Assembly (NCBI GenBank): GCA_036517375.1
Contig: DATDWM010000018.1
Coordinates: forward strand, 9,004 to 73,003
DNA from: Minisyncoccota bacterium
GTDB lineage: Bacteria; Patescibacteriota; Minisyncoccia; Phycocordibacterales; UBA9973
Direction of reading: 5' to 3'
DNA: 64,000 nucleotides
Positions 2,811-48,009 of this stretch are shown here, piece by piece; within the stretch, counting starts at the first letter, position 1, and the number at the start of each line of letters is the position of its first letter. The translations under genes and the position numbers were made by a program. The notes below the pieces were generated by a model. That model saw nothing but the letters and a program-made list of their open reading frames with translations, was not told the DNA's origin and ran no database searches.

Positions 2811-3824
2811 ATGGGAATTTTTTCCAAAAAATTAGGCATAGATTTGGGCACGGCCAATACTTTAGTGTTTCTACCCGGCAAAGGAATCGTGCTAAATGAG
2901 CCTTCAGTTGTGGCCGTTTCGGAACAAGATAATAAAATTTTAGCTATCGGGTTTGAAGCTAAAGACATGATTGGTAAAACTCCAGAAGCGATAATTACCT
3001 ACCTGCCGATGAAAGACGGAGTTATTGCGGACTACCGTGTGACGGAGGCAATGCTTAAATATTTTATCAACAAAGCCATGGGGCGGTTTAATCTTTTTAA
3101 GCCGGATGTGATGGTGTCCGTACCTGCGGGCGTTACTTCAACCGAAAGACGTGCGGTGGTAGAAGCCGCGGTACGAGCAGGAGCGAAGAATGCGTATGTA
3201 GTTAAGGAGCCGATCCTAGCGGCGATAGGCGCAGGGATACCCATACATGAGTCCAAGGGCTACATGGTGGTAGATATCGGAGGAGGCACGACGGATGTCG
3301 CGGTGATCTCGCTCGGCGGAATTGTGGCTTCCACTTCCGTGAAATGCGCGGGTAATAAAATTGATCAAGCTATTGCGGATTATATTAAAAGAACTTTCAA
3401 CTTAGCTATCGGAGACCGGACAGCGGAAGAAGTAAAAATAAAAATAGGCGCTGCGGTACCGCTTGAAGAAGAACTTAGGGTTACCATTAAGGGCCGGGAC
3501 TTTATTCAGGGGCTTCCTCGTTCCGCGCAGGTCGGAACCAATGAAATAGTTAAGGCGATAGATGGGGAATTGAAACACATCATCAAGGCGATCCGGGATG
3601 TCTTACAGGAAACTCCGCCCGAGCTTGCTTCCGACATTATGGACTTCGGCATCATTATGACTGGGGGATCATCCCAGTTGCGGAATTTAACAGATTTGGT
3701 TTATCGGAAGACTGGGGTTAAGGCAATACTCGCTCCGGACCCACTTTTCTGTGTCGTTAAGGGTACGGGTATAGCCCTCGAGCACTTGGATGTTTACAAG
3801 AAGACTGTTTTAAGTAAAAGATAA
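2811..3824 (+). CDS. mreB: Rod shape-determining protein MreB (actin-like ATPase)
   Basis: MGIFSKKLGIDLGTANTLVF... is a classic MreB N-terminus, with phosphate-1/2 and adenosine motifs (DIGGGTTD). I prefer ATG 2811 over the ORF-track GTG at 2790. Confidence 0.9.
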   Translation: MGIFSKKLGIDLGTANTLVFLPGKGIVLNEPSVVAVSEQDNKILAIGFEAKDMIGKTPEAIITYLPMKDGVIADYRVTEAMLKYFINKAMGRFNLFKPDVMVSVPAGVTSTERRAVVEAAVRAGAKNAYVVKEPILAAIGAGIPIHESKGYMVVDIGGGTTDVAVISLGGIVASTSVKCAGNKIDQAIADYIKRTFNLAIGDRTAEEVKIKIGAAVPLEEELRVTIKGRDFIQGLPRSAQVGTNEIVKAIDGELKHIIKAIRDVLQETPPELASDIMDFGIIMTGGSSQLRNLTDLVYRKTGVKAILAPDPLFCVVKGTGIALEHLDVYKKTVLSKR

Positions 3825-6257: not shown

Positions 6258-7985
6258 TTGCAAAATATCAGAATGAAAGAAAGTGAAATAAGAAATTGTC
6301 AGAATTGCAAAACAGACTTCACGATAGAAACTGAAGATTTTAACTTCTACGAAAAAATAAAAGTTCCGCCCCCAACTTTTTGCCCAGAGTGTCGTTTGAT
6401 GCGACGTTTTATGCATACAAGCGAAACTGTTTTATATAAAAGGAAGTGTGATTTTTCTGGTAAAGAAATATTTAGCATGCATCCTGAGGGAGCAGAATTT
6501 CCTGTTTATGATACTGATATCTGGTATTCGGACGCCTGGGATCCTTATGCGTATGGAATGGATTACAACCCCAGTCGTCCATTCTTAGAACAATATTTTG
6601 AACTTCAAAGAAAGATACCTCGTATGTCTATCGTGAGACAAGGCATGGCTGTTAATAGTCCTTACGCACACCGAGTCACTGACCCTAAAAATGCGTATAT
6701 GGTCTTTCGTAGTTCTTATGCAGAAAATTCTTTTTATGTTTATAACGGTAAAAAACATGTCATGGATTGTTGTGACTGCTCCTGGATTTTTGAATGTGAG
6801 CTCTGTTATGAATGCGTGAATTGTGCCAATTGTTACAATGTAAAATTTGGGCAAGAAAGCAAAGATTCTCGAGACTGTTCTTTCATTTATGCATGCAGAA
6901 ACAGTTCTAATTGTGTAGGGTGTGTGAATTTAGTAAATGCGGAGTACTGTATCTGGAACAAAAAATATACAAAAGAAGAATACTTTAAAAAGATTAAGGA
7001 AATGGAATTAAACACTTTCTCCGGTATCGAAAAAATAAAAGTCGAATTTGAAAATTTCAGAAAGACATTTCCACAAAGATCAACTATGTCTATAAAATCC
7101 GATGATGTATCCGGTAACTGGTTTTTAAATAGTAAGAATGTTCACAAATCTTTTGACTGCGAGGGGGTAAAAGACGGGAAATATCTATTTATGGTGTTTG
7201 ATGCACAGGACTGCATGGACTATTTTGAATGGGGTAATAAAGCAGAGCAGATATACGAATCGCAAAATTGCGGACTTGATATTGCACGGCTTTATTTCTG
7301 TAATCAGTGTTGGGCGGGAGCACATGACCTTTATTATTGTGATCTTTGCCCTGGTGCACATGATTGTTTTGGTTGTGTTGGTCTTAAGAAAGGGGAATAT
7401 TCAATTTTAAATAAAAAATATCCAAAAAAAGAATATGAAGTTCTTAAAAAAGAAATCACAGAGCAGATGAAGAGAGTGCCCTATATAGACAAAAAAGGTT
7501 TAGAGTATCGATTTGGTGAAAATTTCCCTCCATCTTTTTCCGATCATGCTTATAATGAAACTATCGCTAATTATTATTATCCGCTTACTAAAGAGGAAAC
7601 AGAAAATACCGGGTATCGTTGGGCGGACAGAAAGAAAAGAAACTATGATGTTACACTGAAACCCGCAGACTTACCAGAAACAATAGGGGAAGTAAATGAT
7701 TTGATTTTAGGTGAAGTTATAGAATGTGCCGAAAAGGATAATCCGAATTCAGTGGGAGCGTATAGAATTGTAGAAAACGAACTATCTTTTTACCGAAGAA
7801 TGGATTTGCCTTTACCGAGAGTTTGTTTCGATATTAGACATATACGAAGAATGGATAAACGCCCGCCCTTAAAAATTATAAATCGCAACTGTTCAAAATG
7901 TAGTAAAGAGGTGGAAACAGTCTATACAGAGCACTATGCACCGATTTTATACTGTGAAAAGTGTTATCAGCAGGAGGTATATTAG
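6258..7985 (+). CDS. Cys-rich hypothetical protein with N- and C-terminal zinc-ribbon-like motifs and internal Cys repeats
   Basis: 575 aa. N-terminus CQNCKTDFTIETEDFNFYEKIKVPPPTFCPECRLMRRF. A related motif sits near the C-terminus (FYRRMDLPLPRVCFDIRHIRRMDKRPPL), followed by CSKCSK...YCEKCY. Two internal CxxC-rich blocks each end in NKKY[TP]KEEY. No recognisable enzymatic motif. Confidence 0.6.
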   Translation: MQNIRMKESEIRNCQNCKTDFTIETEDFNFYEKIKVPPPTFCPECRLMRRFMHTSETVLYKRKCDFSGKEIFSMHPEGAEFPVYDTDIWYSDAWDPYAYGMDYNPSRPFLEQYFELQRKIPRMSIVRQGMAVNSPYAHRVTDPKNAYMVFRSSYAENSFYVYNGKKHVMDCCDCSWIFECELCYECVNCANCYNVKFGQESKDSRDCSFIYACRNSSNCVGCVNLVNAEYCIWNKKYTKEEYFKKIKEMELNTFSGIEKIKVEFENFRKTFPQRSTMSIKSDDVSGNWFLNSKNVHKSFDCEGVKDGKYLFMVFDAQDCMDYFEWGNKAEQIYESQNCGLDIARLYFCNQCWAGAHDLYYCDLCPGAHDCFGCVGLKKGEYSILNKKYPKKEYEVLKKEITEQMKRVPYIDKKGLEYRFGENFPPSFSDHAYNETIANYYYPLTKEETENTGYRWADRKKRNYDVTLKPADLPETIGEVNDLILGEVIECAEKDNPNSVGAYRIVENELSFYRRMDLPLPRVCFDIRHIRRMDKRPPLKIINRNCSKCSKEVETVYTEHYAPILYCEKCYQQEVY

Positions 7986-8750: not shown

Positions 8751-11153
8751 ATGGAGGGAAATAAATTTTTGCAAAAAAATATGAAAGTAGCTGTATTGTG
8801 CGGTGGGCCTTCCTTAGAACGCGGAATATCTCTCAACTCTGCTCGCAGTATCCTTGACCATCTAGGTAGCCAAGGAGTTGAGATAATACCAATTTACTTC
8901 AACGAACAAAAAAGTCCGTATAAAATTTCTACGGCACAATTATATTCGAACACCCCGAGCGATTTTGACTTTAAACTCGACAATAAATCTAAACTCTCAC
9001 CCACCTCACTAATTCGTATTTTAAAAAGTGTAGACATTGTTTTTCCTTGTATACATGGAAGCTTCGGAGAGGATGGGGAGCTACAGAGCTTCCTCGAAAA
9101 GCACAAGATACCATTTATCGGTTCATCTTCAAGCTCATGTAAGAAGGCCTTCGATAAATACAAAGCGAATGAGTACATTCGCTCGCTTGGATTCTATGCG
9201 CCGAACTCTATTGTCATAAAGATTACCGATTCTTCAAGAGACATTAAGGAAAAAGTAAATAAATTTTGGAAAGATGAGGATATTACTCGCGCGATAGTTA
9301 AGCCCGCGAGCGGCGGATCGAGCATTGGGGTTTTCTCGGTAGAGAATATCTCTGACGCTCTCCTAAGCATAGAAAGCCTCTTTAGTAAACGCATGGATAC
9401 TCGGGTAGTAGTGGAGCCCTTTGCTAGGGGGATAGAATTCACAGTAATTGTTTTAGAAAACAGGCTGAATATGCCGGTGGCTATATTGCCGACAGAAATA
9501 GAGGTAGAATATACGGAAAATCAATTTTTTGACTTCCGTAAAAAATATTTACCTACTCGACATGTTACGTATCATTGCCCACCTAGATTTTCCAACGAAA
9601 TTATTGAAAAAATTCAAATTGAAGCGGAACAGTTGTTTTCTATTTTTGGAATGCAGGATTTTGCTCGCTTCGATGGATTTCTGATGCCGGACGGAAATAT
9701 TTGGTTTTCGGACTTCAATCCTATTTCAGGCATGGAGCAAAACAGCTTTCTTTTCCAGCAGGCTTCACGCATTGGCTTTTCACATCAGGACCTCTTCCGA
9801 TATATTGTAAATAACGCGTGTATGCGTAGAGGAATCTCGGGGGCGGTAGAAAATATTTTTATTGCCGAGGATCGCAAGCCACTAGCGGTTCTTTTCGGCG
9901 GGGAAACGGCGGAAAAGCAGGTTTCATTAATGAGTGGTACGAATGTCTGGCTTAAGTTGCGAGGCTCAGAGATTTATAAACCATTTCCGTACCTACTTGG
10001 CCCAAAGGGCGAGGTCTGGGAGCTACCGTATTCGTATATTCTAAATCATACGGTAGAGGAGATAATTGAAAATGCAAAGAGCGCGGAGCAGGATGTGGAC
10101 AGGCTTTCTTTCCTCATTGAGAAGGTCAAGATTAAATTGTCTTTAAATAGCGGGGACACTACCGAGAACTTCTTTATTCCTAGAAAGTATTCACTCGCTC
10201 AAATACTCCAGAAATTTCCTTTTGTTTTTATAGCTCTCCATGGTGGATTTGGCGAGGATGGCACACTGCAGAAGATTCTAAAAGGTGAAAAAATAAAATT
10301 TAACGGATCCGGAAGCGTTGTTTCAAAATTATGCATGGATAAATGGGAAACGAACGAAACAATAAAAAAAGCACAGATAAAAGGAGTAACCGTGGCTGAG
10401 CACGCCCTGTTCCAAATAAGGGATGTCCCTGAACACACCGACAACGACTTGAAAGAAGTGCATTGGAGGATGCTAGTAGAGCGGCTAAGCACAAAGACCA
10501 TCATCGGAAAGCCAAGAGGGGACGGATGTTCTGCTGGTGTGGTGATGCTTTCTAATGAAAAAGATTTGTCTACTTATATATCATTGATAAAAAATAAAGT
10601 AAAGATTGCCAAGCCACATACTTTCACTAATCAAACACATAGCATCGATATGCCAGAGGGTGATGTGCAGGATATTATTTTCGAATCATTTATCGAGACG
10701 GATAGACTGAAAGTGCACAAAGGGGAAATTACTCATATTCCTAAAAGTGGGTATGTGGAAATGACAGTGGGAGTTTTCGAAGAAAGGGGGAAGGTTAGAT
10801 CATTTTCCCCATCTATTACCATAGCCGAGGATACAATACTTTCTGTAGAAGAAAAATTCCAAGGTGGAACCGGGGTAAACATTACTCCTCCACCAAAAGA
10901 AATTATTTCTACTAAGAACTTGAATAAAGTAAAGAGTTTAGTTGAACAAGTTGCCAAAAAAATAGGGATTCGAGGATATTCAAGGATAGACATCTTCGTT
11001 CACATTAAAACTGGTACTATTATTGTGATTGAAATCAACACTTTACCCGGACTAACCCCATCTACGGTAATATACCATCAAGCTTTGGCGGAAAAGAAGC
11101 CGATGTTCCCGAAGGAATTCCTAGAGCTTTTGATCAAAAATAAGGGGTATTAA
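8751..11153 (+). CDS. ddl: Tandem fusion of two complete D-alanine--D-alanine ligase-like ATP-grasp modules (Ddl-Ddl)
   Basis: First half: MKVAVLCGGPSLERGISLNS...FPCIHGSFGEDGELQ...IVKPASGGSSIGV...ARFDGFL...SDFNPISG. Second half repeats the pattern: PLAVLFGGETAEKQVSLMS...FIALHGGFGEDGTLQ...IIGKPRGDGCSAGV...SRIDIFV...IEINTLPG. 800 aa. The true start may be the MKVAVL ATG at 8781. Confidence 0.8.
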   Translation: MEGNKFLQKNMKVAVLCGGPSLERGISLNSARSILDHLGSQGVEIIPIYFNEQKSPYKISTAQLYSNTPSDFDFKLDNKSKLSPTSLIRILKSVDIVFPCIHGSFGEDGELQSFLEKHKIPFIGSSSSSCKKAFDKYKANEYIRSLGFYAPNSIVIKITDSSRDIKEKVNKFWKDEDITRAIVKPASGGSSIGVFSVENISDALLSIESLFSKRMDTRVVVEPFARGIEFTVIVLENRLNMPVAILPTEIEVEYTENQFFDFRKKYLPTRHVTYHCPPRFSNEIIEKIQIEAEQLFSIFGMQDFARFDGFLMPDGNIWFSDFNPISGMEQNSFLFQQASRIGFSHQDLFRYIVNNACMRRGISGAVENIFIAEDRKPLAVLFGGETAEKQVSLMSGTNVWLKLRGSEIYKPFPYLLGPKGEVWELPYSYILNHTVEEIIENAKSAEQDVDRLSFLIEKVKIKLSLNSGDTTENFFIPRKYSLAQILQKFPFVFIALHGGFGEDGTLQKILKGEKIKFNGSGSVVSKLCMDKWETNETIKKAQIKGVTVAEHALFQIRDVPEHTDNDLKEVHWRMLVERLSTKTIIGKPRGDGCSAGVVMLSNEKDLSTYISLIKNKVKIAKPHTFTNQTHSIDMPEGDVQDIIFESFIETDRLKVHKGEITHIPKSGYVEMTVGVFEERGKVRSFSPSITIAEDTILSVEEKFQGGTGVNITPPPKEIISTKNLNKVKSLVEQVAKKIGIRGYSRIDIFVHIKTGTIIVIEINTLPGLTPSTVIYHQALAEKKPMFPKEFLELLIKNKGY

Positions 11154-11552: not shown

Positions 11553-11623
11553 GGGCGATTAGTATAATGGTAGTACAAAGGCCTCCAAATCCTTTGGCGG
11601 GGGTTCGATTCCCTCATCGCCCG
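11553..11623 (+). tRNA. tRNA-Trp (anticodon CCA)
   Basis: Manual fold. Acceptor GGGCGAT/ATCGCCC. D-loop has GG. Anticodon loop CUCCAAA is identical to E. coli tRNA-Trp. T-arm GGGGGTTCGATTCCCTC. Discriminator G, no encoded CCA. The 31-39 position is a C-U mismatch. Confidence 0.8.
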
Positions 11624-11653
11624 CAGATTTTTTAGAGTTTCTGATTATATTTC

Positions 11654-11682
11654 TTGACCTAATGACCAAATCAAGGTATATT
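11654..11682 (+). promoter_or_regulatory. Putative promoter driving the island operon: -35 TTGACC (11654-11659), 17-nt spacer, -10 TATATT (11677-11682)
   Basis: Hexamers read directly. Located between tRNA-Trp and the epimerase gene. Confidence 0.4.
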
Positions 11683-11779
11683 ATATTAATATAATAAAAG
11701 AGAAATCGTTGTTATTCTTGATTTAGATAGTACCTTGGTTGATACAGATTTTATTTGAATTAATGTTATACATAATTTT

Positions 11780-12814
11780 ATGACTAAAATTCTTATTACT
11801 GGTGGTTGTGGTTTTATTGGCTCAAATGCGGTTAAGTACTATCTTCAAAAAAATTATAGTGTTCTCGTGCTAGATAATTTAAGCAGGTCTGGTTCTGAGC
11901 AAAATTTAAAATGGTTGCGAACACTTAAGGGTAAATTTTCTTTCAAGAAAATAGATATAACTAGCTACGTTTCTCTAGTAAGGATTTTTAAAGAATTTAA
12001 GCCTGATTTAATTTTACATTTAGCCGGACAAACTACTGTAGTTGGTTCCATATTAGATCCGAGAGAAGATTTTGAGGTTAATGCGCTTGGGACTTTCAAT
12101 TTACTAGAGACAATGAGGAACATAACACCAAAAGCTGCTTTGATTTACTCAAGTACTAATAAGGTAATGGGCAATTTGGAATATGTGCCTATTATAGAAA
12201 AACAGGAACGTTATATATATAAAAATATTAAAAATATTTCAGAAAAATATCAATTAAATTTCCATAGCCCGTATGGTTGTTCAAAGGGGTGTGGTGATCA
12301 GTACGTAACTGATTATGCTAAAGTTTTTAATTTAAATACAGTTGTGTTTAGACAATCTTGTATATATGGTCCTAATCAATTTGGTATGGAAGAACAAGGT
12401 TGGTTGGCGTGGTTTATTATTTCTTCGCTTTTTAATAAAGAAATTACAATCTTTGGTAATGGTAAGCAGGTGAGAGATGTTTTGTATGTGGACGATTTAA
12501 TTGATGCTTATGATCTAGCTTTTGTGAATATAAATAAGACAAAAGGGAAAATTTATAATATAGGTGGAGGGATTGAATTTAACTTATCTCTTTTAGAGTC
12601 TTTAAAAATTATTGGAAATATAGTCGGTAAAAACTTAAAATATAACTTAAGTTCATGGAGAACTGCTGACCAGAAGGTTTATATTTCTGATGTTGCTTTA
12701 GCAAAAAAAGATTTTGGTTGGTATCCAAAAGTTTCTCCTAAAGACGGTCTCAAAAAACTTTACAAATGGGTAGAAGAAAATAAAACTATTTTTAATAAAA
12801 TTTATACCAGATAA
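11780..12814 (+). CDS. NAD-dependent nucleotide-sugar epimerase/dehydratase (extended SDR, CDP-paratose-2-epimerase / UDP-Glc-4-epimerase-like)
   Basis: N-terminal Rossmann ILITGGCGFIGSN, SSTNKVMG, catalytic Y...K (YGCSKGCGDQY). 344 aa. Very AT-rich codon usage. Confidence 0.8.
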   Translation: MTKILITGGCGFIGSNAVKYYLQKNYSVLVLDNLSRSGSEQNLKWLRTLKGKFSFKKIDITSYVSLVRIFKEFKPDLILHLAGQTTVVGSILDPREDFEVNALGTFNLLETMRNITPKAALIYSSTNKVMGNLEYVPIIEKQERYIYKNIKNISEKYQLNFHSPYGCSKGCGDQYVTDYAKVFNLNTVVFRQSCIYGPNQFGMEEQGWLAWFIISSLFNKEITIFGNGKQVRDVLYVDDLIDAYDLAFVNINKTKGKIYNIGGGIEFNLSLLESLKIIGNIVGKNLKYNLSSWRTADQKVYISDVALAKKDFGWYPKVSPKDGLKKLYKWVEENKTIFNKIYTR

Positions 12815-12815
12815 T

Positions 12816-14027
12816 ATGATTTCTAATAAAAAAATGAAGATTTGTATATATGCCCATAGTTTTCCTCCTATCATTGGCGGTGCTCAAACTTATCAATATA
12901 ATCTAGCCGTTGGGTTAGGAAAGTTGGGGCACGAAGTCCTGGTCTTAACCGGTGATATTCCTGATTCTTTAAAACCGAAAATTAAAGACTATAAGTCATC
13001 ATATTTTAAAATAGTAAGAATACCGCTTTTTCGAGAATCAATAAAAATGAAAGCACCATTTAGAGATTTACTAATGGAATCATTCACATTCTTAAAAAAA
13101 TTTAATCCAGACATTATCTATTCCAATGGTTATGTTCCTTGTCTTTTAATTTCTTTAATTAAAGATGGTTTGAGGGCAAAGCACGTTTATAGTTATCACT
13201 CTACTCCAGAATTGGATGTAAATAAACTAGTAGGTATATGGCCAGGGAACTTAGATTTCGAACTTTCAGTGGCAAGATTTATTTTTAATAAAGGATCATT
13301 TGATGCTTATTTAGCTTGCAGTGACAATTATCTTAGCACTGTAAAGAAGAATATTAATTCCCAAATTAAGAATGCTCACCGGATTTATTACGGTGTAGAT
13401 ATATCCAAGTTTTCTTATAAAATTAAAGCTGACAGAGAGAAGTATGGATTTAGTGAAAATGATTTCGTTATTCTCTGCCCTGTGAGATTAATAGAAAGAA
13501 AGGGGATTTTAGATATCTTGCGAGCCATCAGTCAATTAAAGAAAATAATTCCTGGTGTAAAACTTTTAATTCCCACAAGCAAGCTTTCTACTAATGATAA
13601 GTTTAGCAAATTAGTACTCAACCTAATAAAATCTTTAAAAATCGAAAATAACGTAACAATAAGGGTTGATCAGTTTACCATTGATGATATGCCGATGGCA
13701 TACTCACTTTCAGACCTTGTGATATTGCCTTCATATTCAGAAGGGCTAGGTATCGTTTTATTAGAGGCCATGGCGATGAAAAAGCCAGTCGTAGCTACAG
13801 ATATTTCTGGCGTAAATGAAGTAGTTAAACACAATAAAACGGGCTTATTGGTTCCAGTTAAGAGTCCTAAAAAAATTGCTGAAGCAATTAAATTAATCTT
13901 TAGTGATAGCAAGTTAAGAAATAATTTAATCGATGGTGCTTATGCTATGATAGAGAAAGATTTTGAATTGAATAAACAAGTAAAGAAGGTTGAGGGGCTT
14001 TTCAAAAAAGTACATGGAAAAAATTAA
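12816..14027 (+). CDS. GT4-family glycosyltransferase (GT-B fold)
   Basis: C-terminal E-X7-E motif region EGLGIVLLEAMAMKKPVVATDISGVNEVV..TGLLV. N-terminal FPPIIGGAQ. 403 aa. Confidence 0.85.
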   Translation: MISNKKMKICIYAHSFPPIIGGAQTYQYNLAVGLGKLGHEVLVLTGDIPDSLKPKIKDYKSSYFKIVRIPLFRESIKMKAPFRDLLMESFTFLKKFNPDIIYSNGYVPCLLISLIKDGLRAKHVYSYHSTPELDVNKLVGIWPGNLDFELSVARFIFNKGSFDAYLACSDNYLSTVKKNINSQIKNAHRIYYGVDISKFSYKIKADREKYGFSENDFVILCPVRLIERKGILDILRAISQLKKIIPGVKLLIPTSKLSTNDKFSKLVLNLIKSLKIENNVTIRVDQFTIDDMPMAYSLSDLVILPSYSEGLGIVLLEAMAMKKPVVATDISGVNEVVKHNKTGLLVPVKSPKKIAEAIKLIFSDSKLRNNLIDGAYAMIEKDFELNKQVKKVEGLFKKVHGKN

Positions 14028-14634
14028 CTATAAACTAGCTAATAAGATCAAAAAACATATAAAAAATAGCGATCGTCCGCTCATTATTGTGATTTCTGGT
14101 GTTAATGGGGCTGGGAAAACTACTTTGGCTTTTCACTTATCAAATATATTAGATATAAGACAGCGTGTTAGTTTGGGGTCGATAGTAAAAACTTTGATTG
14201 TGATGAATCCTAAAAATAAAGTTATCTCTAAGATGAATAATTATTTCTTTCCTCTTAATAAGGTAGATATACACAAGCAGGCATTAATCATAAGTAAGGC
14301 AACTAACTCAATGATTAAGAAGTATTACATTGGGGGAGTTTCCTGTATTATAGAAGGGGTACAGCTTCTGACTCGTTATCTTGATAAGAACTGTATTCAA
14401 TTCCACATAAAGATAACTAATAAAAAAAAATATAATAAACAACTAAGAAACAGCGACACAAGAAATCCTCGTAATCTTTCTGAGAAAGTATTCGGAAATC
14501 TGTTGGCGGTGAATGATATTTTAAATAATGAGATGGATATGCCAAATGTGAATTGTTTAGAAAACTCCCGGTCCTTAAATGAAAATATAAATATCGTATT
14601 GAAAACTTTAATTATCAATCTTAATATTAAATAA
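14014..14634 (+). CDS. P-loop NTPase, putative small-molecule or nucleotide kinase
   Basis: Walker A IVISGVNGAGKTTLA near the N-terminus. ATG at 14014 is preferred over the ORF-track TTG at 13990. The start overlaps the GT4 stop by 14 nt. The C-terminal half has no recognisable motif. Confidence 0.55.
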   Translation: MEKINYKLANKIKKHIKNSDRPLIIVISGVNGAGKTTLAFHLSNILDIRQRVSLGSIVKTLIVMNPKNKVISKMNNYFFPLNKVDIHKQALIISKATNSMIKKYYIGGVSCIIEGVQLLTRYLDKNCIQFHIKITNKKKYNKQLRNSDTRNPRNLSEKVFGNLLAVNDILNNEMDMPNVNCLENSRSLNENINIVLKTLIINLNIK

Positions 14635-14638
14635 ATTT

Positions 14639-15622
14639 ATGCCCATCGATTTTACTGAAATTAAACAATTATCAAAGGAAGCAAAAGAAATTTCTAATGC
14701 TCTAAGAAAAGAACTTGGAGAGATGCCTCACAAAATTGAGGGAAACTTTATTGCTTTCTTTGGCCGTCAGTACAATCCTGATCATAAATGGAACTGTGCT
14801 CTGAAGCCCTTATGGTCTGGTTTCTATATTAAGTATAACGAATTAGAAATGATGGTTGATCCTGGAATCAATATTCTGGAGCGAGCAGAAAAGATTGGTG
14901 TAAATTTGGCTCGTACTAACACATTATTTATTTCCCACTCACATATCGACCACAAAAACGACTCTAATGTAATTGCTGAGATGGTCTCTTATAGAGAGAA
15001 CCCTGAATTAAATGTGCTATTTTCGAAACACTCTTTAAATGATAACGCAATGAGTCACTACCACTCTTCATCTAGGGAGAATAAGATAATTTTGCTTGAT
15101 GAGAATGAAGAGGTAGAATTATATAACGGTGTTAAACTTAAGCCCGTAGAAGTTGTACATTCAATTAATGGTGCATATGGTTTTGTATTAGACTTGAATG
15201 GAGTAAAAATTGGATACACAGGGGACACAGGCTTTAATACAACTTATAAAAGTGCTGACGGTAGAGAACTATCTGTTTCAGAAAAAGTACTCGACAAAAA
15301 AGATATAGAAGAACCTGGAGCTTTCAATGAGGACCTGAAAACTTTTTTTAGTGAAGTTGATTTATTAGTTTTCAACTTGCATGACGTGGAATTTAGAAAA
15401 CACACTAAACATAATTTATACCACTCTACAGTTTCTGATGCGGTGAAAGTTTTAAGAGATTCAAAAGTAAAACATTGTTTCTTTGAACATTTTAACCCAT
15501 ACGGTGGAGGGTTGGGTTTAGAATATCCTCAAAAAGTAAACCAATATATACGAGAATCTACTGGCAAGGAAACTACCCTTACCCCATTAAACGGAAGTGT
15601 TTATAGCTTAAATAATATTTAA
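14639..15622 (+). CDS. Metallo-beta-lactamase-fold hydrolase
   Basis: HxHxDH motif (FISHSHIDHKND) and downstream GYTGDTG/H residues. 327 aa. Confidence 0.7.
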   Translation: MPIDFTEIKQLSKEAKEISNALRKELGEMPHKIEGNFIAFFGRQYNPDHKWNCALKPLWSGFYIKYNELEMMVDPGINILERAEKIGVNLARTNTLFISHSHIDHKNDSNVIAEMVSYRENPELNVLFSKHSLNDNAMSHYHSSSRENKIILLDENEEVELYNGVKLKPVEVVHSINGAYGFVLDLNGVKIGYTGDTGFNTTYKSADGRELSVSEKVLDKKDIEEPGAFNEDLKTFFSEVDLLVFNLHDVEFRKHTKHNLYHSTVSDAVKVLRDSKVKHCFFEHFNPYGGGLGLEYPQKVNQYIRESTGKETTLTPLNGSVYSLNNI

Positions 15623-15624
15623 TT

Positions 15625-16677
15625 ATGCCAAGTGAAGCACCAAAATTTTTCGTAGATAAAGTTAGAGAGCAAAAGGAGGAAGATCCTAAACCGTATGATG
15701 CTGTTATTTCATTAGAACCTGGTAAAGAAAAAGTGGGCTTCGTTAGAGATAATTTCGTTTGTGAGGTTGTGGACGAAAAGGGAAATGAGTCTACAATTAG
15801 AATTCCAACCTCTATTACATATTCTAGAAAAGATGCGAATGAACCATGGAGTAAGAAGTTGTATGGCTACAGAGAGGGCGTAGGAGAGGCTTTAGATTCA
15901 GAAGAAATGAGTTACTACGTAGTCTACGATCCATCATCTGAATTAAGCTTCCTAGCTATGCCGCTTGAGGATAATACTAGAATTGCACGTAATAAGGACA
16001 ATTTAGACTTGTTTTTAAAAAACGGTCGAGAAGAAGACACTGAATCATTAAAAAAATTGATGGGCGAATTTAAAGACGTGGATTTCGGATTATTCGGTTC
16101 ACGTAGTGTTCTAGGCTCACCAGCAGCAAAAACAGTAGACATAGATTTGATTATTTATGGGCCTGAAGATTTACAAAGAGTAGTTTCTGCGATAGAAGGA
16201 AATAGTGATTTGCGCAAAAAAATAGGTCTAACAGATAGGTCTTCTGAAACAATAGAAAAATATGTAGCTCACTACATGCGAAAATTTAACATTACAGAAA
16301 GTGAGGCCAGGATTATAACCTTAAGAAGAAGGAGGTATATATTAAAACCTAACATTAAGTTATCGTTCAACTGCGCCCTGCCTGATAAAGAGAGAAAAAC
16401 TCCTATTGTTATAGGTTCTAAGAAAATTCATGATATTACAATTGAAGCCACAGCTTTGGATACCTCAATGTCTTCAGCTTTGCCTAGATTATTTTCAGTC
16501 GAAACTGAAGGGGAAAAAATAGATGTTGTGACTGGTAATTGGTCATTAAAAGATTTCATTAGACCAGGAGATAAAGTTAAAGTTATAGGCGCGTTAAGAG
16601 AGTCTAATGGTGTTACTTTTATCTCTTTAGAGAAACCAGGAGATATCATTCTCCCAACTAATAATGATAAGAAATAA
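15625..16677 (+). CDS. Pol-beta-superfamily nucleotidyltransferase with an uncharacterised N-terminal domain of about 140 aa
   Basis: Minimal NTase signature GLFGSRSVLGSPAAKTVDIDLIIYG (GS...DxD) around residue 150-175. I recognise no motif in the flanking domains. 350 aa. Confidence 0.55.
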   Translation: MPSEAPKFFVDKVREQKEEDPKPYDAVISLEPGKEKVGFVRDNFVCEVVDEKGNESTIRIPTSITYSRKDANEPWSKKLYGYREGVGEALDSEEMSYYVVYDPSSELSFLAMPLEDNTRIARNKDNLDLFLKNGREEDTESLKKLMGEFKDVDFGLFGSRSVLGSPAAKTVDIDLIIYGPEDLQRVVSAIEGNSDLRKKIGLTDRSSETIEKYVAHYMRKFNITESEARIITLRRRRYILKPNIKLSFNCALPDKERKTPIVIGSKKIHDITIEATALDTSMSSALPRLFSVETEGEKIDVVTGNWSLKDFIRPGDKVKVIGALRESNGVTFISLEKPGDIILPTNNDKK

Positions 16678-17578
16678 TGACAATACAGAGAAGATCTTAG
16701 TCAATAGTAAATTCGTTAAGAATTTAAATGTTACTGGCGATAAACTTCACTGTGAGGCTGGCCTGTATGTTTCACTTGGCCGTAAGTACGTGATCAAAAA
16801 AATAGGAAGACAATATAAATTAAATTCCACAGAACTTATACTCCTTGAAAAATCTGTATCGAGATACTACGATCATTTAAAAAAAATCATACCTAATAAT
16901 GTTCCTAAAATTTTTCTTACTAAGATAGATAAGGAGAAAAATTGCATTTTATTAGTTACGGAATATTTACCTTTAGGTAAAGTTACAGCTATTAAAGATA
17001 TTTCAATGAAAATTAAATATTTTAATGAAATTATTAAGTTAATACTCAAGATTTCAAACAAGAAAGGCAATACCTCTGGAAATAAACTCAAATGTTCTAT
17101 TGATCCCAATCCAGATAATTTCTTTTTGGATTCAGAAAATAAGATAGTATATAACGATTTCACACCACCGTTGTACAGAGAAAATGGTAAGTGGGTAGAA
17201 TTTAGAAGAAGAGACGAGGCTCATGCAAAAAAATCTGAAAAGGAAACTCGTTATTTTTCCGAAATAAATTTATTGCTGGCATTTATTAATAAAACAAGAT
17301 TGTATCTAACTTTAGATGAATACCTTAAGTTTTCCAGGTCACACTTTTCAACTAATAATAAGGTAAAGCAGTTTGTAAAAATCTTTGATGAAGTTAGATC
17401 TGAGAGGGTAGCAAGTTTCGATAAACTTGAGAAGCATGTCGTGCGAAGAGATTTATTAAGATTTGCCTTGTCCTTTCGCAAGGGTTTAACAAGTACTCAG
17501 GTCGGAGAACTTTACAAGAAATCTAAAAAACCTAACGGTGTTGTATTTCTTGAGAAAAAATATATAAGTTTAATTTAA
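16664..17578 (+). CDS. Hypothetical protein, possibly protein-kinase-like fold (APH / Kdo-kinase-like)
   Basis: CSIDPNPDNFFLD...KIVYNDFTPP resembles the kinase catalytic loop (D-x4-N) plus a DF-type metal-binding motif. The assignment is weak. The start overlaps the previous gene by 14 nt. Confidence 0.4.
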   Translation: MIRNNDNTEKILVNSKFVKNLNVTGDKLHCEAGLYVSLGRKYVIKKIGRQYKLNSTELILLEKSVSRYYDHLKKIIPNNVPKIFLTKIDKEKNCILLVTEYLPLGKVTAIKDISMKIKYFNEIIKLILKISNKKGNTSGNKLKCSIDPNPDNFFLDSENKIVYNDFTPPLYRENGKWVEFRRRDEAHAKKSEKETRYFSEINLLLAFINKTRLYLTLDEYLKFSRSHFSTNNKVKQFVKIFDEVRSERVASFDKLEKHVVRRDLLRFALSFRKGLTSTQVGELYKKSKKPNGVVFLEKKYISLI

Positions 17579-17582
17579 TATT

Positions 17583-18221
17583 ATGAATGAAGTAAATAAA
17601 GATGGTTTTTGTACAATTTACATAGCTAGACATGGAAAAACTGAGTGGAATTTGGAAAAAATAAACCAAGGTCAGTCGGAGTCAAATATTTCTGAGCTCG
17701 GACTTAAGCAAGCACAAGAAGCAAGTCACAAATTAAAAGATGTGAATTTTAGTGCTATATATTCTTCAGATTTATCTATGGCGCATAGAACAGCTGAGAT
17801 TATTAAGGGTAATCGAGATATAGATATTCAAAAATCTAAATCATTAAGAGGTCGTTCATATGGAACTTTTGAGGGTAAAAAGATTGAGGTATATAAGAAC
17901 TTTTTTAAGGATAAGTTAGCTGAAAGAGAAATTTTACCTGAAAAAGAATATATTTCATTTAGACTAGCCCCCGACATTGAAACTGATGAAGATATTACAA
18001 TTAGGTTTATGGGCAAGCTGATGGAAATATCCATTAATCATCCAAATGAGAGTGTGCTTGTGGTTACTCACGGCGGAGATATAAAAAACTTTCTAGTAAA
18101 GGTAGGTTACATCGAAAGGAAATCCTTTAAAGAGGGATCCTTTATTCATGGAGGGTATATGAAAGTAATTTCAGATGGTAATAATTTCTCAGTAGAATTA
18201 ATAGACGGAATAGAAGAATAA
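17583..18221 (+). CDS. Histidine phosphatase superfamily protein (phosphoglycerate-mutase-like)
   Basis: N-terminal IYIARHGKTEWN (RHG catalytic His motif) and downstream conserved His (VVTHGG). 212 aa. Confidence 0.75.
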   Translation: MNEVNKDGFCTIYIARHGKTEWNLEKINQGQSESNISELGLKQAQEASHKLKDVNFSAIYSSDLSMAHRTAEIIKGNRDIDIQKSKSLRGRSYGTFEGKKIEVYKNFFKDKLAEREILPEKEYISFRLAPDIETDEDITIRFMGKLMEISINHPNESVLVVTHGGDIKNFLVKVGYIERKSFKEGSFIHGGYMKVISDGNNFSVELIDGIEE

Positions 18222-18227
18222 TTTTTT

Positions 18228-18998
18228 CTATTTCTTTCTTATTTCAAAAATAACATACATAGGAATTTTTGAATATATTTTGTAGAATTCAGGTTTTACT
18301 TTGAGAACAGATTTCAATGGTTTTGGTTCAATAAAATCTGAAACTATAAACCCGCTTTTTAATATGTCACTTATCATTGCAGAAATAGGTCGATGATAAT
18401 AAGTCACTTTAAAATCATCAGACAGAACATCACTTACTTTTCTTGTAGCTAAGTAATCCCCAAAAATCTTACCTTCTTTAGATCCATTATTTTGATACCC
18501 CATTAGAAAAGATTTTTTACCTACTGCTTTATTTATTTCCGCCCCCCACTTAACTGGGTGGTGTGTTGAAAAAAGAAATGTTCCATTTTTCTTTAGTATT
18601 CTTGAAACTTTAGTAAGTATTTTTGTCCAATCTTTTGAATAGTGTAATGCTAAGCTGGAGTAGATGAAATCAAAAGAATTATCAGGGAAATTTAACTTTT
18701 CCATATCCATAGTATGAAATTCTAAATTAGGGATAGTTTTCTTTAAAAAATTAATACGTTCATTTGATATGTCTATACCAACAACTCTTTTTGCCCCAAG
18801 AGACTTTATATGCTGACATTCTTCACCTGTACCACAACCTATACATAATACCGTTTTTCCTTTTAAGTTTGGAATTTTTTTATACATAGCTGGTTTCTCT
18901 AGATATGTATGCTTTATGTTTTTTCCGCTCCGCATTTTTTCAGCACATTTTATGGTGTATTTATTATAGGATTCGATTGTGGTTTTGTCTGTGGGCAT
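18228..18998 (-). CDS. Class I SAM-dependent methyltransferase
   Basis: Motif I VLCIGCGTGEE and motif post-I VVGIDIS. 256 aa. The only minus-strand gene in the AT-rich island. Confidence 0.75.
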   Translation of the reverse strand: MPTDKTTIESYNKYTIKCAEKMRSGKNIKHTYLEKPAMYKKIPNLKGKTVLCIGCGTGEECQHIKSLGAKRVVGIDISNERINFLKKTIPNLEFHTMDMEKLNFPDNSFDFIYSSLALHYSKDWTKILTKVSRILKKNGTFLFSTHHPVKWGAEINKAVGKKSFLMGYQNNGSKEGKIFGDYLATRKVSDVLSDDFKVTYYHRPISAMISDILKSGFIVSDFIEPKPLKSVLKVKPEFYKIYSKIPMYVIFEIRKK

Positions 18999-19303
18999 GT
19001 TTAAAATTCATTATTATTATAGATTCTGGTAAATTTGAGTTTTATGTATAATTATATGCTTTATTGTATACAAGTTATCTGTACAATACAAATTATACTC
19101 ATACAGCTTATTATAAGTACCCTTTAAAGGGGTACGGGGGTCGTTTTCCGGGGTCCGGATACCCCCTGATGATACTTATGATGTTTTAGTAAAACATGCT
19201 ATATTTTGAAGGGCATTAAGACTTGTTTTAATCAAAGAGTGGTCTTTTATTAATTCTGAAATCCACTCTGAAAGCCCGCACATAATGTAAGAGAATTCCC
19301 AAA

Positions 19304-35531: not shown

Positions 35532-36200
35532 ATGGACATAGAGATAAAGACAACTACAGAACCTAAAGTTGCTGCAGAATTTCTGGCTAGCCGGATTTTA
35601 GAAAAGTTAGGACTCAATAAAAAAGTTCTGTGGTTTGTACCTGGTGGTTCTTCAATAAAGGTTGCCGCAGAAGCGGCAAAAATAATTTCAAAAAATCCGC
35701 ATCAGAACCTCGCTGTGATGCTTACAGACGAGCGCTATGGACCCGTCGGATTTCCGGATTCGAATTGGCAGCAACTCCTCGACACCGGGTTTTCTTTAGT
35801 GGAAGCGAAGCTAATGCCCGTTTTAAACGGTAGTGCCAGAGAAGAGACAACAGAGAATTTCAACATAAATCTAAAGTTAGAATTAGAGAGAGCGGATTAT
35901 AAAATTGGTTTATTCGGAATAGGGACCGATAGTCATACAGCTGGGATTTTACCGGAAAGCCCCGCGATTGAGAGTAAAGAATTTGCCTTTAGGTACAATA
36001 CGGAGAAATTTGAACGCATTACCATAACACCCAAAACCATAGTAGAATTAGACGAAGCTGTTGTTTTCGTGCAAGGGGAGGGGAAATGGGGAGTGCTCGA
36101 GAATTTTAAAAATAAAAATGTAGATCTCCGGACAGCGCCAGTGCAGATTTTAAAAGTAGTGCCCAAAGTTACAATTTTTAGTGATTATCCAAATAAGTAA
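35532..36200 (+). CDS. pgl: 6-phosphogluconolactonase-like (NagB/RpiA/CoA-transferase-like fold)
   Basis: The LTDERYG motif region and position immediately upstream of gnd and zwf support Pgl over glucosamine-6-P deaminase. 222 aa. Confidence 0.65.
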   Translation: MDIEIKTTTEPKVAAEFLASRILEKLGLNKKVLWFVPGGSSIKVAAEAAKIISKNPHQNLAVMLTDERYGPVGFPDSNWQQLLDTGFSLVEAKLMPVLNGSAREETTENFNINLKLELERADYKIGLFGIGTDSHTAGILPESPAIESKEFAFRYNTEKFERITITPKTIVELDEAVVFVQGEGKWGVLENFKNKNVDLRTAPVQILKVVPKVTIFSDYPNK

Positions 36201-36207
36201 AAATAGT

Positions 36208-37074
36208 ATGAAAAAAATTGCAGTTGCAGGATTGGGTAAAATGGGAAGTCAGATAGCAAAAAAACTTGAAGAGGGTGGTTTTATTGTAATTCCGCATCAT
36301 ACAGAGGATGACAAGAGTAAGACATTAAATGCTTTCAGTGAAGATCAGGTAGTGATTTGGTTAATGATTCCTTCAGGGGTAGTAGACGCGCAACTAGACC
36401 TATGGCTTAAATTAATTCCGAAGGGAAGTATTTTAATAGACGGCGGAAATTCTGATTTCAGGCTCACAAAAGTGCGAGCGGAAAAAGTGGCGGGCTTAGG
36501 TTCTGTCCTGCTTGACATCGGTACCAGCGGTGGAGTCTGGGGGTATCAAAACGGCTTTGCTATGATGTGTGGTGGAGAAAAAAATTCATTTGAAATAATT
36601 GAACCAGTTTTAAAAACCTTGGCATTGCCCCTAGGCGCGTATCATCATTTCGGAGAGAGTGGTTCAGGGCACTTTGTAAAAATGACCCACAACGCCATTG
36701 AGTACGGCATGATGGAGTCCTTAGCGGAAGGCTATCGACTACTTAAGGAAGGACCGTATAAAAATATTGACCTCGTCGCGGCAGGTGAAGTATGGCAACG
36801 TCACAGTGTTATCACTTCTTGGCTGAATGAACTCACTCGGGATGCTTTGAAAGAAAATCCGGAGCTCGGAGGCATTGAGGGTGTAGTAGCAGAATCCGGT
36901 GAGGCACGCTGGGCACTTGAGGTAGCTCAAAATTTAAAAATAGAAACGCCTTCAATTCAGGCTGCATTTGATGTACGTCTCCAGTCTCAGAAAGGAAAAA
37001 TTAATTTTACCACCAAGTTGCTCGCAGCTATGCGGAATGCCTTCGGCGGGCACAATATTCATGGAAAACAATAG
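36208..37074 (+). CDS. gnd: 6-phosphogluconate dehydrogenase (decarboxylating), short about 300-aa form
   Basis: Rossmann IAVAGLGKMGSQIAKKL and HFVKMTHNAIEYGMMESLAEGY. ATG 36208 is preferred over the ORF-track GTG at 36181, which overlaps the pgl stop. Confidence 0.75.
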   Translation: MKKIAVAGLGKMGSQIAKKLEEGGFIVIPHHTEDDKSKTLNAFSEDQVVIWLMIPSGVVDAQLDLWLKLIPKGSILIDGGNSDFRLTKVRAEKVAGLGSVLLDIGTSGGVWGYQNGFAMMCGGEKNSFEIIEPVLKTLALPLGAYHHFGESGSGHFVKMTHNAIEYGMMESLAEGYRLLKEGPYKNIDLVAAGEVWQRHSVITSWLNELTRDALKENPELGGIEGVVAESGEARWALEVAQNLKIETPSIQAAFDVRLQSQKGKINFTTKLLAAMRNAFGGHNIHGKQ

Positions 37075-38089
37075 TACAGCTTACATTATTTTCGGGGCTT
37101 CTGGAGACTTAGCTAAGAGGTATTTATTGCCTGCGCTCGCGAATATGAATTACGAGGGTATCATTGTTCCTATTTCACGCAAGGATTATGGGAATTTAAA
37201 AAAATTAATTCCGAGCGACGGGAATAAGATATTTCACCTAGCAATTCCTCCCAAGGGTGTGACAGAAGCTGTTCGATTAATCAGCGAGAACTTTGGTAAA
37301 GCAAATAATATTAAAATAATGCTAGAAAAACCTTTCGGTCAGGATTTAAAGTCCGCGCAAGATCTAGTAGAGCACGTAGACCAATATTTTAATGAAGATC
37401 AGATTTATCGCATTGATCACTACTTGGCTAAAAAATCTGTACAGGAAATTACTCGAACGGATTGGAATAAAAGTAATGTCCAAAGTATTGAAATTATAGC
37501 TAGTGAAAAAATAGGTATTGAAGGCCGGGTAAATTTTTATGAGCAGACTGGGGCACTGCGGGACTTTGTACAGAGCCACCTGCTCGAGCTCGTGGCAATT
37601 ATTTTAATGAAGGAGGGGGAAGAATCAGTGGCAGAGCGACGCCATACGGCTCTTCAGAATTTAGAAGTTGTCTGTGACATAACTTTACACGAATGTGTAA
37701 AAAGAGGACAATATGAGGGATACAGAGAGGAGGTTGGTAATCCCAAAAGCCTAACAGAGACCTTTGTATCCATAAATATGATTTCCAATGACCCTCTATG
37801 GCGTGGAATACCGATAACCATGGCTACCGGAAAGGCGCTACAAGAAAAATTTACACACATAAAGATAAAATATAAAAATGGAGGCATTAAAATTTTTAAT
37901 ATCGAACATGAACCAGATGCGTATGAGCATGTAATCGAGGCAGCCCTCGAGGATAAGCACAATTTATTTATCTCGAGCGGAGAAGTATTAGAGAGCTGGA
38001 GAATTCTGGATGCTGTGCAGGAGAGCTGGAAGCATTCTAAGGATGATTTGATAATCTATAAAAAAAATAGTAGTATAAACGATATCTAA
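37061..38089 (+). CDS. zwf: Glucose-6-phosphate 1-dehydrogenase, unusually short (343 aa)
   Basis: IIFGASGDLAKRYLLPAL, EKPFGQDL and RIDHYLAKK signature motifs in canonical order. The start at ATG 37061 overlaps the gnd stop by 14 nt. The ORF-track N-terminal extension is the gnd 3' end read in another frame. Confidence 0.8.
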   Translation: MENNSTAYIIFGASGDLAKRYLLPALANMNYEGIIVPISRKDYGNLKKLIPSDGNKIFHLAIPPKGVTEAVRLISENFGKANNIKIMLEKPFGQDLKSAQDLVEHVDQYFNEDQIYRIDHYLAKKSVQEITRTDWNKSNVQSIEIIASEKIGIEGRVNFYEQTGALRDFVQSHLLELVAIILMKEGEESVAERRHTALQNLEVVCDITLHECVKRGQYEGYREEVGNPKSLTETFVSINMISNDPLWRGIPITMATGKALQEKFTHIKIKYKNGGIKIFNIEHEPDAYEHVIEAALEDKHNLFISSGEVLESWRILDAVQESWKHSKDDLIIYKKNSSINDI

Positions 38090-40967: not shown

Positions 40968-41013
40968 AAACCATGAATTTGTCTTTAGTATATATATACG
41001 ATAATATAACTGT

Positions 41014-44720: not shown

Positions 44721-44746
44721 GTAATTCTACTGAGTAAATAATAAAT

Positions 44747-47970: not shown

Positions 47971-48009
47971 ATACTTTCCTTTATTTTTCAAAAATGATAA
48001 TATAATTTC

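Follow-up and report, generated by a model that had tools for sequence, protein, structure and literature searches.

A laterally acquired, AT-rich gene cassette, very probably, beside tRNA-Trp in a Candidatus Nomurabacteria genome, with a putative glycoside pathway as its cargo

In a stretch of 64,000 nucleotides (nt) of contig DATDWM010000018.1 (assembly GCA_036517375.1, contig positions 9,004 to 73,003; this whole stretch is called the window below), a block of about 7.7 kb at 11625-19303, rich in A and T, stands directly behind a tRNA-Trp gene, and the locus raises the question of how the genes of this block came to lie there and what they make. The host is an uncultivated groundwater organism of Candidatus Nomurabacteria (Patescibacteria, also called the candidate phyla radiation, CPR). 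The tRNA-Trp(cca) gene was located at 11553-11624 on the forward strand by ARAGORN and by Rfam (RF00005, 64.2 bits), and seven co-directional genes and one convergent gene, here numbered I1 to I8, fill 11780-18998, all of them intact and with their catalytic motifs. The description in an earlier note on this DNA, of eight genes placed immediately after the tRNA, is thus accurate. Our reading is that the block is very probably a laterally acquired accessory cassette, and the full explanation, which joins this acquisition to the pathway proposed below, appears likely as stated. The cargo is an uncharacterised gene cluster restricted to Patescibacteria. As a genomic island the block is ordinary; the interest lies in its cargo and in the lineage that carries it.

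The base composition sets the block apart from its surroundings. The guanine plus cytosine (GC) content of 11625-19303 is 31.8% against 41.0% for the rest of the window, and on dividing the window into lines of 60 nt the means were 31.7% inside and 41.0% outside (Mann-Whitney p = 1e-28), with the GC falling from about 11.6 kb and back up at about 19.35 kb. GC at third codon positions (GC3) is 22.6-32.1% in the eight genes (mean 26.5%), compared with 39.1 +/- 4.8% in the 47 other open reading frames (ORFs). Tetranucleotide deviation, calculated in 5-kb windows, has its maximum over 11-19 kb (z = 10 when normalised for composition, z = 16 raw), which is the sole strong outlier of the 64 kb. The composition of the block is foreign to its host; by GC, GC3 and tetranucleotides it is not uniform along the window, so the objection that a uniform composition would have raised against an island falls away. 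It may be noted that the contrast had earlier been put at 13-33% GC inside against 50-60% in the flanks. These values came from unrepresentative lines, since lines inside the block span 11.7% to 50% GC and the two flanking examples, 3121-3180 (60%) and 45601-45660 (53%), belong to the upper end of the outside lines, for which the 95th percentile is 55%. The AT-richness itself is thus genuine and lies well outside chance, but the difference amounts to about 9 GC points and is smaller than had been claimed. The suggestion that the acquisition is an old and immobilised one is also not borne out; the unameliorated composition speaks against great age and for a gain of fairly recent date. A second, milder anomaly is the 575-aa ORF at 6258-7985, for which there is no Pfam match (GC 35.8%, GC3 30.7%, a tetranucleotide bump of z = 2.8). 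A homologue with 39-69% identity is found at the same position in five relatives (L003, L005, L013, L016 and L029), and the low GC of this ORF is for that reason no sign of transfer.

Comparison of the same locus in relatives gives the second line of evidence. We used an 800-aa protein encoded at 8751-11153, a tandem fusion of two D-Ala-D-Ala ligase modules (Ddl-Ddl) that is kept in 40 Patescibacteria species, to retrieve 40 loci from bacterial assemblies with one genome per species, and their gene content was compared by tblastn of the window proteins. Nearly all these loci belong to metagenome-assembled genomes of Candidatus Nomurabacteria, Paceibacterota or Patescibacteria, with 52-78% identity in Ddl-Ddl. 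The frame that they have in common reads, on the left, M50 protease, Map, Ddl-Ddl, in some cases alr or murI, rpmG and tRNA-Trp, after which comes a slot of variable content; on the right of the slot follow, in some cases, a haloacid dehalogenase (HAD) family gene and dedA, and then miaA, murA, tRNA-Leu, parB, relA and topA. The tRNA-Trp gene stands behind rpmG at the same position in most relatives, and L001 and L021 match it exactly over its last 27 nt. None of the eight block genes was found in the 17 syntenic relatives in which both flanks (Ddl-Ddl and miaA) were captured, nor in any of the 40 related loci, so the comparison of synteny shows the block to be missing throughout. What the relatives carry instead in the slot, which ranges from about 25 bp to 3.8 kb, are unrelated cassettes: a thiamine pyrophosphate enzyme with an aldehyde dehydrogenase (L002, L005, L013, L029), a HicAB pair (L032), or a small membrane protein, a holin-like protein, a HAD protein and an HD hydrolase (L004, L014, L017). 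In other cases the slot is practically closed, with tRNA-Trp only 25-44 bp from dedA (L021, L011) or, in the more distant relatives L019 and L020, 45-47 bp from miaA. Several relatives have HAD and DedA homologues at this relative position and the cassette of other carriers has none next to it, and for this reason these two genes are taken as part of the locus and not of the island. A tblastn search of the window with proteins encoded in and around the slot in relatives (an 89-aa protein, the holin-like, HD, alr and murI proteins) gave no remnants of them. The region before the tRNA is variable too, as relatives have alr or murI in front of rpmG. One of these two genes lies between Ddl-Ddl and rpmG in most relatives, and the window has neither of them there or elsewhere in its 64 kb.

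The third line of evidence is that the same cassette was found in nine other Paceibacteria contigs (L047-L053, L060 and L061), each time in a different neighbourhood. The gene order common to the carriers is a short-chain dehydrogenase/reductase (SDR), a family 4 glycosyltransferase (GT4), a P-loop protein, a metallo-beta-lactamase-fold protein (MBL), I5 and I6. On dividing the carriers by their further genes, variant A (the window, L047, L048, L053 and L060) adds a histidine phosphatase and a convergent methyltransferase, and variant B (L049-L052 and L061) a protein of about 300 aa with a weak transglutaminase-like motif. The I2-I5 proteins are 63-90% conserved between carriers; the I5 and I6 families comprise 31-32 clusters each, with identities of 63-100% and 39-100%, respectively. 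Nucleotide identity between the window and variant A is about 75% and is confined by blastn to about 11750-19010, starting at 11749-11788 on the left and stopping at 19003-19012 on the right, which indicates that the transferred unit is the genes themselves. An inositol-3-phosphate synthase (PF01658; TIGR03450 match at 7.7e-127) is present in or beside the cassette in 7 of the 9 other carriers, the copies without it being those of L048, L060 and the window. Absence from the syntenic site, deviant composition and recurrence in nine other neighbourhoods together uphold the view of the block as an accessory, acquired island, and they make it a clear and well-delimited case of gene gain within Nomurabacteria. 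A near-identical cassette is also present in the groundwater scaffold ANAN16-1_SAMN03842437 (L044:489-3282), where the GT4 and MBL genes are each split in two ORFs (313+89 aa and 217+78 aa), which may reflect strain-variant frameshifts or assembly errors.

The same observations bear on the opposite possibility, namely that the lineage had the cassette here from the start and shed it on repeated occasions, the AT-richness being intrinsic (the result of weak selection or low expression) and not a mark of transfer. In 8 of 10 carriers the flanks are less AT-rich than the cassette (cassette GC 26-33%, host flanks 26-41%) and the GC of the cassette partly tracks that of the host, with a weak correlation of r = 0.64; CPR genomes are prone to gene loss; and the sampled relatives are all distant, with at most 78% identity in Ddl-Ddl. 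Yet such a history needs loss in all 17 syntenic relatives and relocation to nine differing neighbourhoods, the tRNA-Trp abuts miaA across a gap of 45-47 bp in the more distant relatives, and the tetranucleotide signature stays deviant after normalisation for composition (z = 10). We therefore hold repeated loss from an ancestral state to be very unlikely and prefer acquisition. Some results weigh against acquisition all the same and should be read beside it. Even the closest relative that has the locus reaches just 78% identity in Ddl-Ddl, and a metagenome scan that used the HAD protein to look for empty sites in conspecifics gave distant relatives only. No such site was found, so that the timing and the direction of the change are not bracketed. 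In most carriers the cassette exceeds its host in AT content, and some of the anomaly could accordingly be a property of the cassette itself instead of a signature of the donor. Also, the carrier loci that were fetched share no housekeeping genes with the window, and the comparison of cassette identity with host identity failed.

Both ends of the block lie in intergenic DNA with intact genes on either side. The left junction is an AT-rich leader of 155 nt on the forward strand (11625-11779, 21.9% GC), which has no likeness to relatives or other carriers except in its last 30 nt or so. Inside it, at 11654-11682, is the TTGACC-17-TATATT element that the earlier note took for the promoter of the block. 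This sigma-70-like match is indeed present and was the top-scoring promoter-like match of the region in our scan, but such matches are no commoner here than in shuffled sequence (41 found against 35.5 +/- 5.5 expected). The right junction is a non-coding spacer of 305 bp (18999-19303, 31.8% GC), in agreement with the 300 bp or so noted before, after which come the genes for HAD, DedA, miaA and murA. It is overlapped only by short ORFs of 24-48 aa and, since I8 and the HAD gene diverge from it, must contain the promoters of both. An Rfam search of 10.5-23.5 kb at a permissive threshold returned two tRNAs only and nothing in the right spacer. Within this spacer there is a GC-rich imperfect hairpin at 19129-19165, GGGGTACGGGGGTCGTTTTCCGGGGTCCGGATACCCC, that occurs only once in the window; its fold does not reach significance (z = -1.5), it has no Rfam match, and it is absent from the relatives and the other cassette carriers examined.

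An abrupt change of composition at both ends, in a genome assembled from a metagenome, is also what a chimera of assembly or binning with DNA of a lower-GC organism would give. The junctions do not suit this explanation: that from I8 through the spacer to the HAD gene is 100% identical in independent assemblies of three other samples (L041, L042 and L043), and the junction of tRNA and I1 is likewise present in the 116-kb contig L041, which thus has both. With block ends that fall in intergenic DNA and leave the genes on each side intact, an artefact of this kind is hardly credible. The same 116-kb contig encodes the exact I5 protein, as do several short contigs that come from further samples of this kind, the matches being labelled Candidatus Paceibacterota by NCBI.

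How the cassette arrived is a separate question. The earlier note proposed integration into the 3' end of the tRNA, and a classical island of this type would have been inserted at tRNA-Trp by a recombinase, with integrase and attachment (att) sites lost later. In its favour the low-GC block begins right after the tRNA, and the cassette lies just downstream of a co-oriented tRNA in 4 of 10 carriers (tRNA-Trp at 155 nt, tRNA-Gln at 168 and 605 nt, and tRNA-Ile at 297 nt from an associated helix-turn-helix gene). The probability of at least 3 of 10 cassettes being adjacent to a tRNA is 2e-4 to 0.03, depending on the density of permissive sites that is assumed, and the adjacency thus exceeds chance under simple assumptions. 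In L051, moreover, the 19 nt at L051:4863-4881 repeat the 3' end of tRNA-Gln(ttg) with 17 identities (score 14, where 30 shuffles gave at most 11). They follow the tRNA itself (L051:4585-4656) at a distance of about 200 nt and lie about 380 nt upstream of the cassette, that is, on the proximal side; this copy may be the att scar of an earlier integration event. Against the proposal, scans with Pfam, NCBIfam and PADLOC showed no tyrosine or serine recombinase among the eight products or their flanks, and the cassettes of the nine other carriers likewise neither contain nor adjoin one. The window has no second copy of the 24-nt 3' end of tRNA-Trp even when up to 3 mismatches are allowed, which also answers the suggestion that such a partial copy should be sought with tolerance for mismatches. 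At the distal boundary the best ungapped match to the tRNA 3' end scored 7.5, compared with a shuffled mean of 9.4, and the direct and inverted repeats between the boundaries are AT-rich chance matches at the shuffled level. That neither integrase nor att duplication could be seen had been stated before, and we again found neither. The cassette was not found on IMG/VR viral contigs scanned with the I5 family, or on plasmids (tblastn); the slot holds ordinary metabolic genes in relatives, and the region before the tRNA varies as well. On this evidence recombinase-mediated insertion at the tRNA is an unlikely origin.

Genes of mobile elements are present in the vicinity of the cassette in some carriers. 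These are an IS3-type transposase (HTH_Tnp_1 and rve) 0.5 kb upstream of it in L052 (L052:2603-3675) and an rve gene 5 kb downstream in L061 (L061:16869-17768), neither of which is a tyrosine or serine recombinase. Terminase, T5orf172 and DNA methylase genes lie 5-8 kb downstream of the cassette in L060 (L060:13695-17714).

Because the region upstream of the tRNA is variable in relatives too, insertion or replacement at a permissive operon boundary is favoured, and a permissive or replacement hot spot fits the slot at least as well as tRNA targeting does. The most likely route would then be recombination into a permissive, tRNA-flanked operon boundary. With tRNA-adjacent islands the block shares the start at an intact tRNA, the atypical composition, the accessory cargo, the sporadic distribution and the recurrent tRNA neighbourhood; position at the tRNA 3' end, deviant composition and patchiness are thus all seen, whereas a recombinase gene and an attL/attR direct repeat are not. 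The cassette further differs from such islands in having no mobility genes and no link to phage, and the slot in relatives contains ordinary small cassettes. Flexible (replacement) islands are hypervariable loci between core genes, such as the glycosylation and envelope clusters of marine bacteria. Here the same flanking core genes are kept in 17 relatives with differing content between them, the cargo is of a sugar-modifying kind and dedicated mobility genes are absent, as in flexible islands; unlike them, the other carriers hold the cassette at other loci, so that replacement through flanking homology is not demonstrated, and the host lineage is CPR. Altogether a hypervariable slot between core genes is the better fit than a tRNA-linked island, two defining features of which (integrase and att) fail.

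We turn to what the cassette encodes. The co-directional genes are separated by anything from a 14-nt overlap to a 4-nt gap, which points to an operon of I1 to I7. I1 (11780-12814, forward strand) encodes an extended SDR that resembles CDP-tyvelose 2-epimerase, a nucleotide-hexose C2 epimerase. Its best PDB matches are TaTyvE (9RL0, E = 7.6e-101, 341 bits), with which it is collinear over 330 residues, and Salmonella RfbE (1ORR, E = 9e-93, 314 bits). TaTyvE interconverts CDP-glucose and CDP-mannose through a 2-keto intermediate, and the features given for TyvE-like enzymes are the triad Thr124/Tyr164/Lys168, a TNK segment and a VAM segment, Val83-Ala84-Met85 (PMC13098431). In I1 we found the GxxGxxG motif at 8-15, T126-N127-K128, Y165/K169, Q206, R232 and R294 to be conserved, so the catalytic triad and the TNK segment are both there. 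Alignment from end to end, the triad, TNK, Gln205 and the phosphate-binding arginines are thus common to I1 and the two solved enzymes, and by its sequence I1 is a bona fide sugar-nucleotide epimerase homologue. The difference is in its setting, which has no O-antigen or 3,6-dideoxyhexose cluster and no adjacent CDP-glucose-forming cytidylyltransferase or 4,6-dehydratase, and in the residues at the VAM positions, to which we return below.

The second gene, I2 (12816-14027, forward strand), encodes a retaining GT4 glycosyltransferase of GT-B fold (Pfam Glycos_transf_1 at 3.5e-36, plus Glyco_transf_4), of the type that uses small soluble acceptors. The EX7E motif of this fold is present as E309-x7-E317. 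The nearest solved relatives are BshA structures (2JJM, 3MBO, 5D00; E about 1e-21), and the protein is far under all curated equivalog cut-offs, among them those of BshA (TIGR03999, 92.9 against 273.7 bits) and MshA (TIGR03449, 76.1 against 462.5). I3 (14014-14634, forward strand) is by profile a P-loop small-molecule kinase of the 2-phosphoglycerate kinase (2PGK)/mevalonate-3-phosphate 5-kinase (M3P5K) family. Its N-terminal part matches the NCBIfam 2-phosphoglycerate kinase model at 2.9e-10, its Walker A motif is GVNGAGKTT, and the family aligns (hhalign, 95% probability) with archaeal homologues that match the 2PGK and M3P5K models over the full length. As to its start, the mechanical ORF runs from TTG 13990, and an alignment of ten homologues begins at ATG 14014 and so favours that codon; the latter overlaps the GT4 stop codon by 14 nt, the same overlap as at the I5/I6 junction. 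I4 (14639-15622, forward strand) has a metallo-beta-lactamase fold (Pfam Lactamase_B_2 at 2.3e-12) with the motif HSHIDH at 100-105 (HxHxDH), a weak RNase Z match and a precomputed Apyc1-like match, and this hydrolase is likely a phosphodiesterase.

I5 (15625-16677, forward strand) belongs to a rare family of Pol-beta-superfamily nucleotidyltransferases with an N-terminal beta domain and a C-terminal oligonucleotide/oligosaccharide-binding (OB) fold. G158, S159, D172 and D174, which make up its GS...DxD motif, are invariant in 48 sequences, and 35 of the 48 family members match NTP_transf_2 (PF01909), I5 itself staying below the threshold and so without a Pfam match. The superfamily pattern, G[SG]...[DE]x[DE] together with the NTP_transf_2 profile, is therefore found in the family. 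The I5 profile matches only 81 of 1.84 billion representative proteins. An AlphaFold model made with the 48-sequence alignment (mean confidence, pLDDT, 92.5) shows the beta domain, the nucleotidyltransferase core and the OB fold, the last of which resembles SSB, RPA and the anticodon-binding domains of aminoacyl-tRNA synthetases; an earlier model from 18 close homologues had a pLDDT of 55.6 and its fold matches were unreliable. No full-length structural analogue of I5 was found in the PDB, where the structure search returned the OB-fold domain only, and sequence searches of the PDB with I5 and I6 gave nothing useful.

Downstream of it, I6 (16664-17578, forward strand) has the motifs of an atypical, ABC1/UbiB-like protein-kinase-like kinase, namely a conserved K, a TEY hinge, D147-x4-N152 and N164-D165-F166. 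Its Pfam ABC1 match is weak (5e-4), with 15 of 17 family members matching ABC1 and 2e-5 as the best value, and one homologue (P0058) is a natural fusion to His_Phos_1. I7 (17583-18221, forward strand) is a histidine phosphatase of branch 1 (Pfam His_Phos_1 at 4.1e-35) with RHG at 16-18, THGG at 162 and a second catalytic His. Convergent with it on the reverse strand, I8 (18228-18998) encodes a class I S-adenosylmethionine-dependent methyltransferase (Pfam Methyltransf_11 at 4.2e-24) that occupies the same convergent position in L047, L048, L053 and L060 with 79-81% identity.

Read together, these predicted activities suggest that the operon makes a glycoside from a CDP-hexose on a small phosphorylated acceptor. 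The donor suggested by the epimerase is a CDP- or NDP- (nucleoside diphosphate) hexose, and I1 would interconvert it at C2, in the way that TaTyvE turns CDP-glucose into CDP-mannose. The likeness of I2 to BshA and MshA points to a small soluble acceptor, and I2 would move the hexose onto such an acceptor in phosphorylated form. In most carriers this would probably be L-myo-inositol-1-phosphate, since the inositol-3-phosphate synthase embedded there suggests an inositol phosphate acceptor as in the first step of mycothiol synthesis; for the window copy, with no synthase, the acceptor would need to come from elsewhere or be made by a kinase. The presence of a dedicated phosphatase suggests that a phospho-acceptor is glycosylated and then dephosphorylated, and I7 would thus take off the phosphate by the two-step logic of sucrose, glucosylglycerate and mycothiol synthesis, after which I8 may methylate the product. 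The remaining enzymes (I6, I5, I3 and I4) would serve to activate or recycle either sugar or acceptor, one such course leading from sugar to sugar-1-phosphate and on to NDP-sugar. I6 and I5 together could salvage free sugar by turning it into NDP-sugar, which would explain the lack of a conventional cytidylyltransferase, and I3, as a 2PGK-family kinase, and I4 might make or recycle phosphorylated intermediates. NUDIX hydrolase genes lie within a few kb of the cassette in 6 of the 9 other carriers (L047, L048, L050, L052, L060 and L061), accompanied by an extra histidine phosphatase in L047 and L052 and by an APH-type kinase in L061, and these may be accessory parts of the pathway.

Several points tell against this pathway. 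The cassette contains no sugar-1-phosphate cytidylyltransferase of the usual fold; the inositol-phosphate synthase is absent from the window cassette and, by tblastn, from the entire 64 kb; at the VAM positions I1 has T85-T86-V87 (TTV), so that the VAM segment of TyvE is lacking; and the modelled OB fold of I5 is of the nucleic-acid-binding type, which leaves open that its substrate might be RNA or DNA. The specific glycosyl-inositol chemistry, which we read from sequence relationships, is accordingly put forward as a tentative proposal only.

Some of the same features could be taken to mean that the block is an island of anti-phage defence or conflict, encoding a nucleotide-signalling or nucleic-acid-modifying system. 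I2 scores above the Pfam 'GT4-conflict' threshold (44.7 bits), homologues of I4 match 'Anti-Pycsar Apyc1', the OB fold of I5 is of the nucleic-acid type, NUDIX genes recur beside the cassette, and variable slots often carry defence genes, as with the HicAB pair in L032. But PADLOC identified no defence system among the cassette proteins, returning only generic P-loop matches (E 2e-4 or weaker) and a methyltransferase-domain match. Conservation of the proteins from carrier to carrier is strong (63-90% for I2-I5), and a housekeeping-type inositol-3-phosphate synthase in the operon of most carriers together with the epimerase homologue I1 points to metabolism. A role in defence is for these reasons highly improbable, and a biosynthetic role is preferred.

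Among known two-step glycoside pathways, the nearest in logic are Ino1-MshA-MshA2, BshA, sucrose-phosphate synthase/phosphatase and GpgS/GpgP. The cassette has in common with them a small-acceptor GT4 like BshA and MshA, a dedicated phosphatase, of the histidine-phosphatase type as in mycobacterial GpgP, and, in most copies, an inositol-3-phosphate synthase. It departs from them in that its GT4 is far below the family cut-offs, deacetylase and ligase genes are absent, the window copy is without the synthase, and the four extra phospho-transfer enzymes and the CDP-sugar epimerase lack counterparts there. In the searchable literature we found no description of this cluster, or of inositol-phosphate synthase in CPR.

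Part of the cassette reappears outside the bacteria. In three Pacearchaeota contigs (L057:7220-8775, L058:5257-6773 and L059:7396-8927) a kinase like I3 overlaps the start of a nucleotidyltransferase like I5, the pair lying between a transaldolase/FSA gene and a polyprenyl synthase gene, and this kinase-nucleotidyltransferase pair is therefore conserved in both CPR and the DPANN archaea, which are, next to CPR, the other major group of ultra-small episymbionts. The archaeal version shares with the cassette the homologous P-loop kinase (hhalign 95%) and the protein joining nucleotidyltransferase and OB domains in one operon; it differs in its neighbours, which are transaldolase/FSA, polyprenyl synthase and HAD genes, with no GT4, SDR or MBL. 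To our knowledge no function has been established for the pairing in either CPR or DPANN.

The broadest version of the proposal is an undescribed pathway restricted to Patescibacteria, in which salvage activation by I6 and I5 feeds the epimerase and the GT4, with a methylated glycosyl-inositol(-phosphate) as the resulting metabolite or envelope head-group. The cassette would pass between Paceibacteria genomes as a self-contained unit with a preference for tRNA-flanked sites, and its kinase-nucleotidyltransferase core would be common to DPANN as well. We regard this combination as speculative and rather doubtful as it stands. CPR bacteria have tiny genomes with very limited biosynthesis, and metabolic modules that move laterally among them hint at what these episymbionts require at the surface or in the cytoplasm. 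Here such a module has about ten genes and some 30 metagenomic occurrences, is usually linked to inositol-phosphate synthesis and includes a rare nucleotidyltransferase family that has no solved or annotated relative. If the chemistry is as suggested, a glycosyl-inositol product would be a candidate compatible solute or host-interaction molecule of CPR bacteria.

Elsewhere in the window, at 35532-38089 and 38092-51886, are genes of the oxidative pentose-phosphate branch (6-phosphogluconolactonase, 6PGD and G6PD) and of IMPDH, purM, purC and a purB-like protein, a set that exceeds the biosynthetic capacity typical of Patescibacteria.

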